A stretch of DNA of 26,251 nt from a virus (Duplodnaviria; Heunggongvirae; Uroviricota; Caudoviricetes). Shown here piece after piece: positions 1 to 9,278 of this stretch (the stretch's first letter is position 1; each line of letters starts with the position of its first letter). The translations under genes were made by a program, and so were the position numbers. The stretch is taken from positions 1 to 26,251 of the IMG/VR virus record IMGVR_UViG_2585427768_000003; one strand, written 5' to 3'. Below the pieces are notes generated by a model. The model did not search any database and was not told the DNA's origin. It was given only the letters and a program-made list of their open reading frames with translations.

Positions 1-1254
1 ATGCTGGAACAAATGGGCATTGCCGCGAAGCAAGCCTCGTATAAATTAGCGCAACTCTCCAGCCGCGAAAAAAATCGCGTGCTGGAAAAAATCGCCGATG
101 AACTGGAAGCACAAAGCGAAATCATCCTCAACGCTAACGCCCAGGATGTTGCTGACGCGCGAGCCAATGGCCTTAGCGAAGCGATGCTTGACCGTCTGGC
201 ACTGACGCCCGCACGGCTGAAAGGCATTGCCGACGATGTACGTCAGGTGTGCAACCTCGCCGATCCGGTGGGGCAGGTAATCGATGGCGGCGTACTGGAC
301 AGCGGCCTGCGTCTTGAGCGTCGTCGCGTACCGCTGGGGGTTATTGGCGTGATTTATGAAGCGCGCCCGAACGTGACGGTTGATGTCGCTTCGCTGTGCC
401 TGAAAACCGGTAATGCGGTGATCCTGCGCGGTGGCAAAGAAACGTGTCGCACTAACGCTGCAACGGTGGCGGTGATTCAGGACGCCCTGAAATCCTGCGG
501 CTTACCGGCGGGTGCCGTGCAGGCGATTGATAATCCTGACCGTGCGCTGGTCAGTGAAATGCTGCGTATGGATAAATACATCGACATGCTGATCCCGCGT
601 GGTGGCGCTGGTTTGCATAAACTGTGCCGTGAACAGTCGACAATCCCGGTGATCACAGGTGGTATAGGCGTATGCCATATTTACGTTGATGAAAGTGTAG
701 AGATCGCTGAAGCATTAAAAGTGATCGTCAACGCGAAAACTCAGCGTCCGAGCACATGTAATACGGTTGAAACGTTGCTGGTGAATAAAAACATCGCCGA
801 TAGCTTCCTGCCCGCATTAAGCAAACAAATGGCGGAAAGCGGCGTGACATTACACGCAGATGCAGCTGCACTGGCGCAGTTGCAGGCAGGCCCTGCGAAG
901 GTGGTTGCTGTTAAAGCCGAAGAGTATGACGATGAGTTTCTGTCATTAGATTTGAACGTCAAAATCGTCAGCGATCTTGACGATGCCATCGCCCATATTC
1001 GTGAACACGGCACACAACACTCCGATGCGATCCTGACCCGCGATATGCGCAACGCCCAGCGTTTTGTTAACGAAGTGGATTCGTCCGCTGTTTACGTTAA
1101 CGCCTCTACGCGTTTTACCGACGGCGGCCAGTTTGGTCTGGGTGCGGAAGTGGCGGTAAGCACACAAAAACTCCACGCGCGTGGCCCAATGGGGCTGGAA
1201 GCACTGACCACTTACAAGTGGATCGGCATTGGTGATTACACCATTCGTGCGTAA
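1..1254 (+). CDS. proA: gamma-glutamyl phosphate reductase (glutamate-5-semialdehyde dehydrogenase)
   Basis: 417-aa ORF starting at window position 1 with ATG; length and sequence match my recall of enterobacterial ProA (aldehyde dehydrogenase fold); lies directly upstream of thrW as in E. coli. Confidence 0.93.
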
Positions 1255-5060: not shown

Positions 5061-5423
5061 TTAATGACCTGCTGCGCGGAGTTTTCCGTCAGGTTCACCG
5101 GCAAGAGTCAGTAATTGTCCCTGGTCTTCCTGCAGAATAGTCAGGCGACCACCGCGATTGACATACATCGGCGTTTCGGTGGTGTCTTCTTCGGAAATTT
5201 TCCCGCGGTTAGTCGGGCGAACATATGAGAGTTTGTGTTTGATTTTCACACGGTTCTCATCAAATGGTTCGATTTCCAGGTTGAGTGAGACCTTACCTTT
5301 GGTTTTCGTGTTCATCACACCGGAAGCGACTTCACTGAGAACTGCGCCGATTTTGGTTTCAAATACGCCGCCGTCCAGCTCCCCAATAAATGCCTGCACA
5401 TCAGTACTGCGTTCGCTAGCCAT
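5061..5423 (-). CDS. hypothetical early phage protein (YfdP-like)
   Basis: 120 aa from ATG at 5423 (MASERSTDVQ...) preceded by AGGAG at 7-nt spacing; the ORF-track extension to 5741 runs through GC-rich structured noncoding DNA and is rejected. Confidence 0.65.
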   Translation of the reverse strand: MASERSTDVQAFIGELDGGVFETKIGAVLSEVASGVMNTKTKGKVSLNLEIEPFDENRVKIKHKLSYVRPTNRGKISEEDTTETPMYVNRGGRLTILQEDQGQLLTLAGEPDGKLRAAGH

Positions 5424-5471
5424 TTTTCTGCTCCTAATCATATCGACCCTGCAAGGTCGGTTGGTTTCTCC

Positions 5472-5560
5472 ACAAAACAGAGAAGAACACCTGCGGTGGC
5501 AGCCGCCCGGATGGATTGGGTTATGAGCCCGTCGTCCGGTGATGTTCTTCTCTGTTTTGT
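5472..5560. repeat. 18-bp perfect inverted repeat (ACAAAACAGAGAAGAACA / TGTTCTTCTCTGTTTTGT) with 53-nt GC-rich spacer
   Basis: arms 5472..5489 and 5543..5560 are exact reverse complements; sits in a ~440-bp noncoding interval upstream of the YfdP-like gene. Confidence 0.8.
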
Positions 5561-5861
5561 AAAAAGAGCGGTACCAGCCGGAAGCAAGTGTACAAACTGG
5601 TACCGCGAGGACTACACACAGCATAAAGTTGTGGTGCCGGGTGCCTCCCGGTGCCTGGCGAAAGTTGCACACCAGGCGGGTGGGTATCCACAGAAGGTCG
5701 ACTGTCAGCCTCAACCTTAACCCGCGTGCGCTGAGCCGCATTCACCACAACGCTAAGGATTCTCTCTGGTTGAAAATACTTAGCTGTTATGTGCCTGTCT
5801 TTTCACCACTTCAGGCTCGGTGGTATCTTGGTGTTTTCATATAGCCAAGAAGGAAATAGTT

Positions 5862-6053
5862 ATGACCAAAGAAGAAAAAATTCTTTATTTATTCCAACTA
5901 TCGGTTAAGACTCACACTGCATATCAGACTGCTGCCATGACATCAGATAAAAATTACAGTACGTCAGAAAACCCGATAGACGACATAAGCAAGCTTTACG
6001 ATAAGTTCGAAGCACTACTCGATAAAAAGTTTGCTGAGGCTGGGCTTGAGTGA
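5862..6053 (+). CDS. small hypothetical protein (63 aa), opposite orientation to the early-left operon
   Basis: ATG at 5862 preceded by AAGGAA; AT-richer than neighbours; 3' end overlaps the convergent ORF 6015..6221. Confidence 0.45.
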   Translation: MTKEEKILYLFQLSVKTHTAYQTAAMTSDKNYSTSENPIDDISKLYDKFEALLDKKFAEAGLE

Positions 6054-6221
6054 TTGTTGAATAATCGACAAAACCCAACTTAAATTTTCGTCAGTGGGCT
6101 CGATGCCATGTGCGGTGAGCTCACTTTTCAAAACTCCAAGCAATTCAGAGCTGATTTTCAATATATCTGCTTGATTTCTAACTATTCCCACTTTTTCCTC
6201 CCTTGGTCTACGCGCGGTCAT
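6015..6221 (-). CDS. small hypothetical protein (68 aa), first ORF downstream of the putative leftward early promoter
   Basis: ATG at 6221; basic N-terminus MTARRPREEK; weak Shine-Dalgarno; positional analogue of lambda N or rex, no family recognised. Confidence 0.35.
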   Translation of the reverse strand: MTARRPREEKVGIVRNQADILKISSELLGVLKSELTAHGIEPTDENLSWVLSIIQQSLKPSLSKLFIE

Positions 6222-6399
6222 GTTTTACGCCCAAACGACTTCACAGTTATTGTTTAAAATCTGGACTTTCATTTCATACACCTGCTTTAACATGAGTGCC
6301 TAGTGGCACAACATGACTCAACGAATCATCCTGGACTTCATATGCCCCAGGCGGCTACTTCGTGGGCGTCCTGCCTGTTCGTTATCTTTGATATAAAAT

Positions 6400-6464
6400 C
6401 TAACTTAACTTAGTTATTATGGCAAGAGAAAACACCAAACTTTTCTTAGTTCGGTGCCTTAGTT
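6400..6464. promoter_or_regulatory. OL-like operator cluster (CTTAGTT half-sites at 6409, 6445, 6458; dyad CTAAC-TTAA-CTTAG at 6400..6413)
   Basis: same 7-mer recurs in the cI-cro intergenic region; AT-rich interval immediately downstream of cI. Confidence 0.4.
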
Positions 6465-6478
6465 AGAGAAGAGAGGTC

Positions 6479-7105
6479 TTAGAGTTCGTATTGAACTCCT
6501 TTGACTACACCAATGATAAGGCAATTACCATTGATAGGGATGTTGGGATACCGAGGATTTAATGGCACTAAAAACTTTTGAGGGCCATCGATGACTAATT
6601 TTTTTACTGTAGCTTCGTTTGTTCCATCAAGTCGAGCGATGACTATTTTTCCATGACGAGGTTCTGCATCTGGATCTACAATCACTGTTGCGCCTTCTGG
6701 TATTGTTGGGAGGCCATTAGGGTTAGTCATGGAGTCACCTTTAACCTCTAATGCAAATGAGTTATCACCAATCTTTAATGATGTATCTACCCACTTGTCC
6801 ACTTCACTAAACACTTCTGCTGCCCTGCACTCAGTAAACTGCCCAGCCTGAACCCACGATATTACAGGAACTCTGCGCATGTTTGTGACGAGTTTGCCTT
6901 CAAACTCAGCACCATAAAGAATGTAATCTATTGACGTATTGAAGAACTTCGCTAATTTCGAAAGTGCCTCCCCACCAGGGGTATTGATGTCTTTCTCCCA
7001 GTACCCCACAGCAACGTCGCTTACTCCACAAAATTTACCCAATTCTTTCTGGGACGTTCCGGTAACTCTTCTCAGAGCTTTTATACGCTGACCAACCGTT
7101 TCCAT
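6479..7105 (-). CDS. CI-like prophage repressor (HTH_XRE N-terminus, S24 LexA-type peptidase C-terminus)
   Basis: 208 aa; N-terminal HTH (QKELGKFCGVSDVAVGYWEKD), C-terminal GDSM serine motif and downstream Lys; ATG at 7105 has no Shine-Dalgarno, compatible with a leaderless PRM-type transcript. Confidence 0.88.
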   Translation of the reverse strand: METVGQRIKALRRVTGTSQKELGKFCGVSDVAVGYWEKDINTPGGEALSKLAKFFNTSIDYILYGAEFEGKLVTNMRRVPVISWVQAGQFTECRAAEVFSEVDKWVDTSLKIGDNSFALEVKGDSMTNPNGLPTIPEGATVIVDPDAEPRHGKIVIARLDGTNEATVKKLVIDGPQKFLVPLNPRYPNIPINGNCLIIGVVKGVQYEL

Positions 7106-8336: not shown

Positions 8337-9278
8337 ATGAGCACTAAATTAACCGGCTATGTATGGGATGGTTGCGCTGCATCAGGCATGAAATTATCCA
8401 GCGTGGCAATTATGGCCCGCCTGGCTGATTTCAGTAATGACGAAGGTGTGTGCTGGCCATCAATTGAAACTATTGCCCGTCAGATTGGCGCGGGGATGAG
8501 TACCGTCAGGACGGCTATCGCACGGCTGGAAGCAGAAGGCTGGTTAACACGTAAGGCGCGTCGCCAGGGTAACCGCAATGCGTCGAATGTTTATCAGCTT
8601 AACGTTGCGAAGCTTCAGGCAGCGGCATTTTCTCAACTGTCAGATTCTGACCCGTCAAAATCTGACGCATCAAAATCTGACCCGTCAAAATTTGATGCGT
8701 CGAAATCTGGCAAAAAAGCGGGTTTTCACCCGTCAGAATCTGGCGGGGATCCGTCAGTAAAATCAAAACATGATCCGTCAGATAAAAAACCTTCTCGTCC
8801 GGACGCTTCGCAACCGGACACGCAGACGGATGAACAGGATTTTTTAACTCGCCATCCTGATGCGGTTGTATTCAGCCCTAAAAAGCGCCAGTGGGGAACG
8901 CAGGATGATTTGACCTGCGCACAGTGGCTCTGGAAAAAAATCATCGCCCTGTACGAGCAAGCCGCCGAATGTGACGGCGAGGTGGTTCGTCCCAAAGAAC
9001 CGAACTGGACAGCCTGGGCAAACGAAATTCGCCTGATGTGTGTGCAGGATGGTCGTACTCACAAACAAATCTGCGAGATGTACAGCCGCGTCAGCCGCGA
9101 TCCGTTCTGGTGCCGTAACGTGCTCAGCCCGTCGAAGTTGCGGGAAAAATGGGATGAGCTTTCCCTGCGCTTATCACCGTCCGTCAGCACGTACACCGAA
9201 AAACGCGAAGACCCGTACTTCAAAGCCAGTTACGACAACGTGGACTACAGCCAGATCCCGGCAGGATTCAGGGGGTGA
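8337..9278 (+). CDS. phage replication initiation protein (N-terminal HTH, C-terminal DnaT-like domain)
   Basis: 313 aa; ATG at 8337 with AGAGG upstream; N-terminus typical of replication-initiator HTH proteins; C-terminus ends ...DYSQIPAGFRG, resembling the DnaT C-terminal ...SQIPPGFRG; central linker encoded by an iteron array. Confidence 0.75.
   Translation: MSTKLTGYVWDGCAASGMKLSSVAIMARLADFSNDEGVCWPSIETIARQIGAGMSTVRTAIARLEAEGWLTRKARRQGNRNASNVYQLNVAKLQAAAFSQLSDSDPSKSDASKSDPSKFDASKSGKKAGFHPSESGGDPSVKSKHDPSDKKPSRPDASQPDTQTDEQDFLTRHPDAVVFSPKKRQWGTQDDLTCAQWLWKKIIALYEQAAECDGEVVRPKEPNWTAWANEIRLMCVQDGRTHKQICEMYSRVSRDPFWCRNVLSPSKLREKWDELSLRLSPSVSTYTEKREDPYFKASYDNVDYSQIPAGFRG
8639..8744 (+). repeat. 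iteron array (putative origin) inside the replication gene: 13-bp GTCARAATCTGAC-like repeats
   Basis: five copies at exact 15-bp phasing starting 8639, 8654, 8669, 8684, 8699 and a sixth at 8732; first copy GTCAGATTCTGAC is palindromic; degenerate copies to ~8780 followed by A-rich tract. Confidence 0.7.

Follow-up and report, generated by a model that had tools for sequence, protein, structure and literature searches.

A long inverted repeat in a prophage early-left leader forms helix P1 of a three-way-junction RNA

Described leader RNAs and the setting of the locus

Structured or processed leader RNAs of phage early operons are a known general kind. The nearest described systems are the RNase III hairpin of the lambda N leader, which lies between nutL and the N ribosome-binding site, and the R-sites of T7. 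Like the lambda N-leader hairpin, the element described here is a long, near-perfect hairpin in the untranslated leader of a lambdoid early-left operon, with an RNA signal before it and the ribosome-binding site of the first gene after it, and like RNase III sites it has a duplex of at least 22 bp (PMC6212723). However, it shares no sequence kinship with the lambda N leader, and the ribosome-binding site lies outside the helix here. Its helix ends in a branched top that is conserved and bears an invariant hairpin, a feature that RNase III sites do not need, and its cleavage is a proposal. The thrS operator and other anticodon-arm mimics of mRNA leaders provide a further comparison, in that a 5'-leader hairpin reproduces the upper stem and anticodon loop of one specific tRNA, here with 14/14 nt of tRNA-fMet. 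The thrS operator, however, overlaps the ribosome-binding site and has as its ligand the synthetase that the downstream gene encodes, whereas the tRNA-like tip of the element lies ~90 nt from the start codon and the genes downstream of it vary and are unrelated to methionine or initiation.

The sRNAs STnc100, sRNA-17 and PasD are the immediate neighbours of the element, and the U-tract of the sRNA terminator supplies the first pairs of its long helix, P1. The element also exists apart from STnc100, after other terminators or immediately after a promoter. It resembles HK022 put as a folded leader RNA of a lambdoid early operon for which no dedicated protein is known, but no sequence or covariance-model similarity to put was found, and both the architecture and the placement relative to the terminator differ. 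It also resembles P1/P7 c4, P4 CI and N15 CA, which are structured RNAs in prophage operon leaders beside a terminator. These RNAs act through loops complementary to downstream targets, whereas no such complementarity was found for the element, and the Rfam C4 model gave no match to it. Relatives of the window phage carry C4 and isrK elsewhere in their genomes.

The window, by which we mean the whole 26,251-nt stretch of DNA that was analysed, is 100% identical over positions 5400-5900 (a 501-nt query) to the SfV-like prophage at thrW of E. coli KSC1031. The features that surround the element are as follows.

7105..6479, minus strand: LexA-type CI repressor
6425..6397, minus strand: PL-like promoter, found by promoter scan
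6381..6320: conserved RNA-like leader directly behind the PL-like promoter, different from the element studied here
6221..6015, minus strand: 68-aa open reading frame
5784..5858, minus strand: conserved element 5' of the sRNA, with the core GAUACCACCGAGCCUGAAGUGGUGAAAAGACAGGCACAUAACAG and 85-94% identity in Klebsiella, Cronobacter and Salmonella phages
5781..5559, minus strand: STnc100-family prophage sRNA gene (Rfam RF02076), filling the upstream half of the interval
5561..5606, minus strand: intrinsic terminator of the sRNA, with a 10-12 bp stem (5606-5597/5577-5568) and UCUUUUU at 5567..5561
5421..5436, minus strand: Shine-Dalgarno AGGAG (5435..5431) and ATG (5423..5421) of yfdP, annotated by PGAP as a 120-aa YfdP in the identical strain
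5423..5061, minus strand: yfdP, the first early-left gene after the module, followed by yfdQ and yfdR, with xis and int farther on
1369-1441: thrW tRNA, the sole match of the tRNA covariance model in the window

This gene order on the minus strand identifies the interval as the untranslated leader of the early-left operon and the minus strand as the relevant one. A PHROGs scan of seven neighbouring open reading frames returned no antiterminator annotation, and the early-left proteins were all listed as 'unknown function', giving no hint of a protein partner. The conserved element at 5784..5858 could be a promoter or a 5' hairpin. It is kept although those Klebsiella, Cronobacter and Salmonella phages otherwise differ.

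The inverted repeat is helix P1 of a folded RNA

The leader contains two exact reverse-complement arms of 18 nt each (5472-5489 and 5543-5560) with a 53-nt spacer, and we reproduced both the coordinates and the complementarity reported in the original prediction. A repeat search extends the arms to 25 nt (5472-5496 and 5536-5560) at 88% DNA complementarity, and among inverted repeats that span no more than 150 nt, 5472-5560 is the longest of the 26-kb window. The claim that such a repeat is unlikely by chance also held, with ~6e-5 perfect 18-mer inverted repeats expected at spacers of up to 150 nt in random 26 kb (26251 x 150 x 4^-18). The spacer had been credited with pairing potential of its own, and we indeed observed that it folds alone into two hairpins, which the predicted fold contains. 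Compared with shuffled sequence, the minimum free energy (MFE) fold of the element gave z = -6.0 on the minus strand and -6.3 on the other.

We show here that the two arms pair as helix P1 of an RNA of ~100 nt with a three-way junction, which is transcribed leftward as part of the early-left 5' leader. Its parts and the hairpin that follows it are listed below; columns are those of alignment A1.

5567..5464, minus strand: three-way-junction RNA consisting of P1, P2 and P3 with GGAGAAAC at its 3' end, delimited by covariance model R1, covariation and the MFE fold
5565..5541, minus strand: 5' strand of P1 (columns 3-27), containing the arm 5543-5560
5539..5507, minus strand: P2, with outer stem CCGGA/UCCGG, two small internal loops and the apical hairpin GGGCUCAUAACCC at 5530..5518
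5506..5493, minus strand: P3, GCGG-CUGCCA-CCGC, short and of variable length
5491..5467, minus strand: 3' strand of P1 (columns 103-127), containing the arm 5472-5489
5471..5464, minus strand: near-invariant GGAGAAAC directly 3' of P1, seen in alignment A1
5459..5444, minus strand: downstream hairpin CGACCU-UGCA-GGGUCG, between the element and the Shine-Dalgarno sequence of yfdP

P1 comprises 24 pairs, 18 of them consecutive Watson-Crick pairs in the window, and 6 to 8 pairs are changed on both sides. The first 5 nt of its 5' strand are the U-tract of the upstream terminator, and GGAGA pairs with this tract through column pairs 3-127, 4-126, 5-125 and 7-123, which are kept in most of the 53 sequences of A1. 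The outer stem of P2 covaries, with G-C replaced by A-U in 16-17 sequences and with CCAGG/CCUGG variants. P3 reaches ~40 nt in relatives, where it often has a UUGCAG loop, and shows both-side changes in 3/4 of its pairs. The length of the element ranges from 104 to 131 nt across relatives.

For the covariation analysis, viral contigs were searched with the 'spacer' motif, which yielded at least 120 loci and, among the matches listed, 57 distinct versions of the element; 53 sequences were aligned on the basis of MAFFT (A1). The scored structure consisted of 24 pairs in P1, 10 in P2 and 4 in P3, and the controls were partners slid by 1-3 columns together with 500 shuffles. In A1, 95.5% of the cells were paired compared with 41-54% in the slid controls, both-side changes occurred at 10 pairs, and the observed covariation score was reached by 0/500 shuffles. 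The arms themselves covary, with C-G replaced by A-U (27 versus 20), G-C by C-G (36 versus 16) and A-U by G-C at two positions (41 versus 9 and 48 versus 5). Because this first set had been drawn through the P2 loop, two independent retrievals were made, one with the YfdP protein in one genome per species and the other with the 3' arm of P1 alone in viral contigs. A second, model-guided alignment of 100 hits, mostly retrieved by the 3' arm alone, contained 85 distinct sequences, in which 94.0% of the cells were paired compared with 39-57% in the slid controls. Here 15 pairs, with 138 cells, were changed on both sides, and 0/500 shuffles matched the observed values on all five measures. The fit of the 85-sequence alignment to a model favours the structure somewhat, and the MAFFT-based A1 agrees with it. 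The original prediction had proposed a covariation test in related prophages; the compensatory changes at 15 pairs among 85 distinct relatives are its outcome.

The conservation is specific to one strand. G-U pairs are frequent in A1, with U-G in 48/53 sequences at columns 26/104 and G-U in 17/53 at columns 23/107, and the window itself has an example in U5542-G5490, a pair that is valid in minus-strand RNA alone. Since these positions are mismatches on the opposite strand and in duplex DNA, what is conserved is RNA on the minus strand. Consistent with this, covariance model R1 scored the window at 118.4 bits on the minus strand and 46.1 bits on the plus strand, and every relative was likewise strand-biased. 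The uninterrupted 18 bp of the window are a peculiarity of its lineage, as an A-U of the window is G-U in most E. coli relatives, and in 80/85 distinct relatives a G-C of the window is replaced by a 1x1 mismatch in the middle of the helix. Taken together, the covariation, the strand-specific G-U pairs and the conservation in at least eleven genera bear out the proposal of a structured RNA, and we conclude with high confidence that the element is a conserved structured RNA of the minus strand.

The same data weigh on a role of the repeat at the level of DNA, as a cruciform, a recombination site or a dyad operator. The perfect 18-bp DNA arms of the window would suit such a role, but Watson-Crick symmetry is not kept in the homologues, in which G-T/A-C positions and the conserved mismatch are common. 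Relatives thus lose the symmetry of the DNA and keep the pairing of the RNA through G-U pairs and compensatory changes, and operators conserve sequence and do not covary. The perfect repeat being confined to one lineage, and the mismatch of the relatives, count against a cruciform as well as a dyad operator. The proposed protein-binding dyad is therefore not supported, because relatives preserve neither DNA symmetry nor sequence and the model favours the minus strand by 72 bits; the suggested cruciform-prone recombination site is unsupported given the same strand preference and the replacement of DNA symmetry by G-U pairs and compensatory changes. We regard a DNA-level function as highly improbable.

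A coding function of the same interval is exceedingly improbable. It would consist of an N-terminal extension of YfdP, the 226-aa open reading frame formed by yfdP and sequence upstream of it, or of a YmfH-like protein. The frame is indeed open for 106 codons upstream of the yfdP ATG in the E. coli and Shigella copies, and RefSeq lists the same region of the K-12 prophage e14 as the CDS ymfH. However, among homologues the reading frame of YmfH or of the extended YfdP is not conserved: 14/19 loci, covering most of the other genera, have a stop in frame 1-13 codons before the conserved ATG, and 13/53 variants have length differences not divisible by three. YfdP homologues of other genera begin at the equivalent ATG, and the substitutions are paired across the helix. 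In the identical strain, PGAP starts YfdP at the ATG at 5423 and treats the ymfH-like frame over the RNA as a frameshifted pseudogene. The upstream stops, the frame-breaking lengths and the PGAP start support the earlier view of the 226-aa frame as an artefact, and we read the ymfH annotation as spurious. The DNA-level and the coding readings are both essentially excluded.

The neighbouring sRNA and proposed read-through into the element

The upstream half of the 440-bp interval belongs to a known sRNA family, which had gone unrecognised in the original prediction. The Rfam model RF02076 (STnc100) matched at 48.5 bits (gathering score 47, E = 8.6e-8), its positions 1-206 mapping to 5781..5559 and ending at the 5' edge of the inverted repeat. 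Because the match stops at 5559, the inverted repeat lies outside that family; the model overlaps only ~7 nt of the 5' strand of P1 and nothing of P2 or P3. Relatives with an RNA in the same slot scored below the threshold for STnc100: SfV 39.5 bits, phiES15 40.6, 118970_sal3 37.5, ST64B 35.1 and a Klebsiella phage 35.0.

The sRNA ends in an intrinsic terminator. The hairpin at 5606..5568 has arms that are perfect over 10 nt, agrees with the predicted fold and is followed by a U-run, which abuts the inverted repeat on its 5' side and pairs into the base of the long helix. For the inverted-repeat hairpin itself, the sequence after the 3' arm is GGAGAAAC (minus strand) or AAAAAGAG (plus strand), with no U-run on either side; neither strand therefore offers the G+C-rich hairpin with a direct U-run of an intrinsic terminator. 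The earlier statement that the absence of a U-tract argues against a simple terminator was thus correct for the hairpin, but it overlooked the adjacent terminator, whose UCUUUUU borders the repeat on the minus strand.

As judged from position and partial sequence similarity, the sRNA of the window appears to be a homologue of sRNA-17 of E. coli K1 RS218. sRNA-17 lies in an mEp460-like prophage, measures 193 nt by 5'/3' RACE and was detected by Northern blotting, and the strain of the window is among the partial homologues tabulated for it (PMC7719688). We located it through the published primers, which were designed from the RACE-mapped ends (PMC7719688, Table S2). By this primer placement, sRNA-17 spans CGUUGUGGUGAAUGCG... 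to ...GGUACCGCUCUUUU on the early-left strand, in the same slot and with the same terminator as in the window. In the RS218 lysogen, yfdP is nearly silent in the wild type and rises 96-fold after replacement of the sRNA region by a cassette (PMC7719688); part of this rise may come from read-through out of the inserted Cm cassette.

That sRNA-17 ends at the terminator and that yfdP is nearly silent in the lysogen speak for a leader that is made on read-through (PMC7719688). The best overall explanation, plausible and somewhat short of probable, is a read-through-dependent leader RNA in which a conserved structured element includes a helix for RNase III-type processing or stability. In a lysogen, transcription of the sRNA would halt at the terminator and the element would not be made. 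On induction or infection, leftward read-through would allow the U-tract and the next 20 nt to pair with the 3' arm in a helix of ~24 bp. Such a helix is of the size of an RNase III substrate, and cleavage, or mere stability, would separate the sRNA from the mRNA. The separated yfdP mRNA would gain a defined, structured 5' end, as with the RNase III hairpin of the lambda N leader, and the invariant P2 tip, which looks like the anticodon arm of initiator tRNA, would be recognised by a protein or by the ribosome.

The RNase III and leader-processing step of this account is tentative. RNase III accommodates ~22 bp (PMC6212723), and the 24 pairs of P1 reach the duplex length of ~20-22 bp or more that marks its substrates. 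Against this reading, a plain RNase III site needs neither a near-invariant P2 nor conserved positions in P1, and most relatives have the mid-helix mismatch and many G-U pairs. Moreover, the yfdP ribosome-binding site is not sequestered by the helix, which counts against the lambda N-leader parallel. The text of the RNase III cleavage atlas (PMC6212723) does not mention e14.

The place of the element beside a verified Hfq-type sRNA gene also raises another idea, namely that it is an independent trans-acting sRNA, or an extended 3' form of the STnc100-type sRNA, that base-pairs with host or phage mRNAs. The prophage leaders P1 c4 and P4 CI release regulatory RNAs, which gives a precedent. However, in the promoter scan the stretch from the terminator to P1 contained no sigma-70 site, the element is not followed by a terminator, and the window holds no site complementary to the P2 loop. 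Pairing of the CAU loop with the start region of its own gene was tried as a candidate and rejected: across 155 loci, duplex energies compared with shuffles gave a mean z of 0.02, so that complementarity to the downstream start region is at chance level. With no promoter, no following terminator and no complementary target found, a trans-acting role is decidedly improbable.

With model R1, the element was located ~40 nt ahead of yfdP in each of eleven genera (Escherichia, Shigella, Leclercia, Kosakonia, Enterobacter, Phytobacter, Mangrovibacter, Atlantibacter, Superficieibacter, Scandinavium and Pseudocitrobacter), the folded element was confirmed in SfV, ST64B and mEp460-like phages, and the interval matches 2785/5426 complete E. 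coli genomes. Among 211 distinct modules, the U-tract is directly 5' of P1 in 204, a strong hairpin precedes the U-tract in 209, and 201 have a downstream hairpin with a GCA-containing loop (GGCA in 66, UGCA in 47, GUGCAGA and others), its stem differing in sequence between modules. Most modules are followed first by the gene for YfdP, others by that for an RdgC-like protein, YfdR or Xis. The RNA upstream of the module also varies between loci. At one locus (L077), the module starts ~25 nt past a PL-like promoter with operators and has no sRNA ahead of it, and phiES15 and Klebsiella phages have the STnc100-like RNA and lack the module. These varying neighbours, together with L077 and the phages that lack it, indicate that the module is a separable cassette of early-left leaders. 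The defective prophage e14 of K-12 has a decayed copy (83.7 bits) with a mutated P2, and this decay fits a role tied to the active phage life cycle.

A folded RNA so close behind an early-left promoter as at L077 could also be a processive antitermination RNA like put of HK022, which would bind RNA polymerase and let transcripts ignore later early-left terminators; put suppresses downstream terminators through the beta' zinc-binding domain of RNA polymerase. In keeping with this analogy, no N-like protein was recognised among the neighbouring open reading frames, and put, too, is a folded leader RNA that acts independently of a protein (PMC9378689). However, comparison of the element with positions 19.0-33.5 kb of HK022 by blastn and R1 gave chance-level hits only, and a three-way junction of ~100 nt differs from the two stem-loops of put (~70 nt). 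The element is also downstream, not upstream, of the only strong terminator of the leader, and the leader at 6381..6320 behind the PL-like promoter is a better put candidate. Since no similarity to HK022 was found, we consider a put-like function improbable. A nut site of the lambda type was not seen either, as no boxA of the CGCUCUUA type is conserved by eye among the loci compared and the terminator tails vary.

The literature searched covers only the neighbouring sRNA, and the element is undescribed there. In Rfam 15 no family was found for 5464-5558 even at E <= 10, save chance-level hits to MIR1094 and the hairpin ribozyme. The RNA svsR (PMC12803456) was considered and set aside as a different RNA, which sits at the 3' end of cI.

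The P2 tip and the significance of the element

Conservation is highest in the region that had been described as a spacer, and within it at the tip of P2. The 14 nt CGGGCUCAUAACCC (5531..5518, minus strand) are identical to the anticodon stem-loop of E. coli tRNA-fMet and comprise three G-C pairs and the loop CUCAUAA; each of the 5426 E. coli genomes contains the tRNA-fMet sequence at 100% identity, under the annotation tRNA-Met. We calculated a chance of ~6e-5 that any 14-mer of the element matches any E. coli tRNA anticodon arm. In ~215 instances retrieved through the 3' arm alone, and so independently of the loop, the tip reads CGGGCUCAUAACCC in 116, CGGGCUCAUUCCCC in 61 and CGGCUCAUAACCC in 15. 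CAU is kept in ~95% of these instances, with minor CCCAU/UUCAU variants and a handful without CAU. An invariant P2 argues that something specific may bind it.

One reading of this resemblance is that the P2 tip mimics tRNA-fMet and is a decoy or docking site for a factor that recognises the anticodon arm, with P1 and P3 as mere scaffold. Candidate partners would be MetRS, the 30S P site together with IF3, or an anticodon nuclease specific for tRNA-fMet, for example the Shigella and Salmonella toxins VapC/MvpT. VapC reportedly cleaves tRNA-fMet, in work by Winther and Gerdes of 2011. Besides the 14-nt identity and the conservation of CAU, RNAs next to the element in some leaders fit this picture. 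In two loci (L093 and L087) the RNA in the STnc100 slot is tRNA-like; that of L093 has canonical D and T arms and reaches 43.9 bits with the tRNA model of Rfam. In both, the acceptor stem GUUGUGG/CCACAAC is identical to the stem that closes the STnc100-like RNA, and a UCAUAACC hairpin lies internally. Sequence derived from tRNA thus appears to be a recurring theme in these leaders. However, the match is limited to the top three pairs and the loop, and the likeness ends below the third G-C pair with a C-A mismatch and a bulged A. A quarter of the members have UC in place of AA at loop positions 37-38, and a few are without CAU. The tRNA covariance model gave no hit overlapping the element even at E <= 10, and ARAGORN found no tRNA in 12 element-bearing loci of relatives. 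Judged from sequence, mimicry of tRNA-fMet by the P2 tip is an unlikely reading.

We know of no three-way junction that bears the anticodon hairpin of an initiator tRNA. The broader proposition, that temperate phages of Enterobacterales use a long helix of the early-left leader to present a working copy of the anticodon arm of initiator tRNA, is doubtful. If true, the copy would be a decoy for a tRNA-fMet-specific nuclease, either of the VapC/MvpT type or an unknown anti-phage anticodon nuclease, or alternatively a built-in P-site ligand that holds a 30S subunit in place on the leader. Taken with the tRNA-like variants in the STnc100 slot, it would then point to a family of regulatory RNAs of lambdoid prophages that derive from tRNA and had escaped recognition.

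Seeing the element as an RNA corrects current annotations, in which it has no Rfam family and is a protein gene, ymfH, in K-12. The element also occupies the stretch between the virulence-associated sRNA-17/STnc100 and the early-left genes that rise when the sRNA locus is deleted. The RNA is compact and covaries strongly, its tip has the same sequence as the anticodon hairpin of initiator tRNA, and, if this resemblance is functional, it would represent a new route by which phages reach translation initiation or tRNA-targeting toxins.

Leader and convergent ORFs of the early-left operon

Window 6320-6381, minus strand: leader AACAGGCAGGACGCCCACGAAGUAGCCGCC...GAUGAUUCG
Window 6221..6015, minus strand: 68-aa ORF, phrog_15476
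Window 5862-6053, plus strand: 63-aa ORF, phrog_2605, unknown function

The leader lies directly downstream of the PL-like promoter and is 84-95% conserved in ST64B, e14 and phages of Yersinia, Pantoea, Citrobacter, Pectobacterium and Providencia. Its position is that of a nut or put site, which makes it a candidate for a leader RNA that acts in cis; it has no sequence similarity to HK022. Farther along the operon leader, the phrog_2605 ORF points against the operon; its convergent overlap with the 3' end of the phrog_15476 ORF could give rise to antisense RNA.

Repeats and RNA genes of the early-right region

Window 8641-8742: inverted-repeat cluster
L001-L004 (relatives), early-right regions, as at L003 321-509: C4 antisense RNA and isrK RNA genes

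The cluster includes arms of 20 nt (85%) and of 18 nt (89%), and its appearance is that of a replication origin or an iteron-type feature. The C4 and isrK genes are adjacent and lie near rha/antirepressor genes in SfV, ST64B, mEp460 and 118970_sal3 (L001-L004); neither was found in the window at the gathering threshold.

P3 and the downstream hairpin

L150 (a relative locus), about 2420-2500: near-identical P3 and downstream hairpins

The short P3 hairpin of the inverted-repeat element can be nearly identical to the hairpin that follows the element, at L150 (GGCGGUUGCAGCCGC(C)) and at other loci. Loops of UUGCAG, UGCA or GGCA are frequent in both hairpins. This likeness could reflect a common binding factor or alternative pairing.

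The STnc100/sRNA-17-type RNA and the tRNA-like cores of L093 and L087

Window 5784-5858, minus strand: conserved stretch GAUACCACCGAGCCUGAAGUGGUGAAAAGACAGGCACAUAACAG
Window 5559-5781, minus strand: STnc100/sRNA-17-type RNA
L158 (E. coli K-12-type e14 prophage) 2600-2911: annotated CDS ymfH
L093 (a relative locus) 1077-1203, minus strand: RNA with tRNA-like core
L087 (a relative locus), upstream of its element: RNA with tRNA-like core

The conserved stretch, always immediately upstream of the STnc100-like RNA, retains 85-94% conservation across Klebsiella, Cronobacter and Salmonella phages of otherwise dissimilar sequence. It repeats the GUGGUGAA motif of the sRNA, and may serve as a promoter or in alternative pairing. 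In e14, the ymfH annotation, probably a spurious protein, covers both the sRNA copy, whose core carries a deletion, and the inverted-repeat element, whose P2 loop is mutated (GGGUUAAUAACCC).

The ends of the sRNA are invariant (CGUUGUGG ... CCACAAC), and the cores between them differ widely. The cores at L093 and L087 genuinely fold like a tRNA; that of L093 scores 43.9 bits against the Rfam tRNA model, with canonical D and T arms and an insertion of ~64 nt replacing the anticodon arm. Taken together, the invariant ends and these tRNA-like cores suggest that the STnc100/sRNA-17-type family derives from tRNA or can be exchanged for a tRNA-like RNA.
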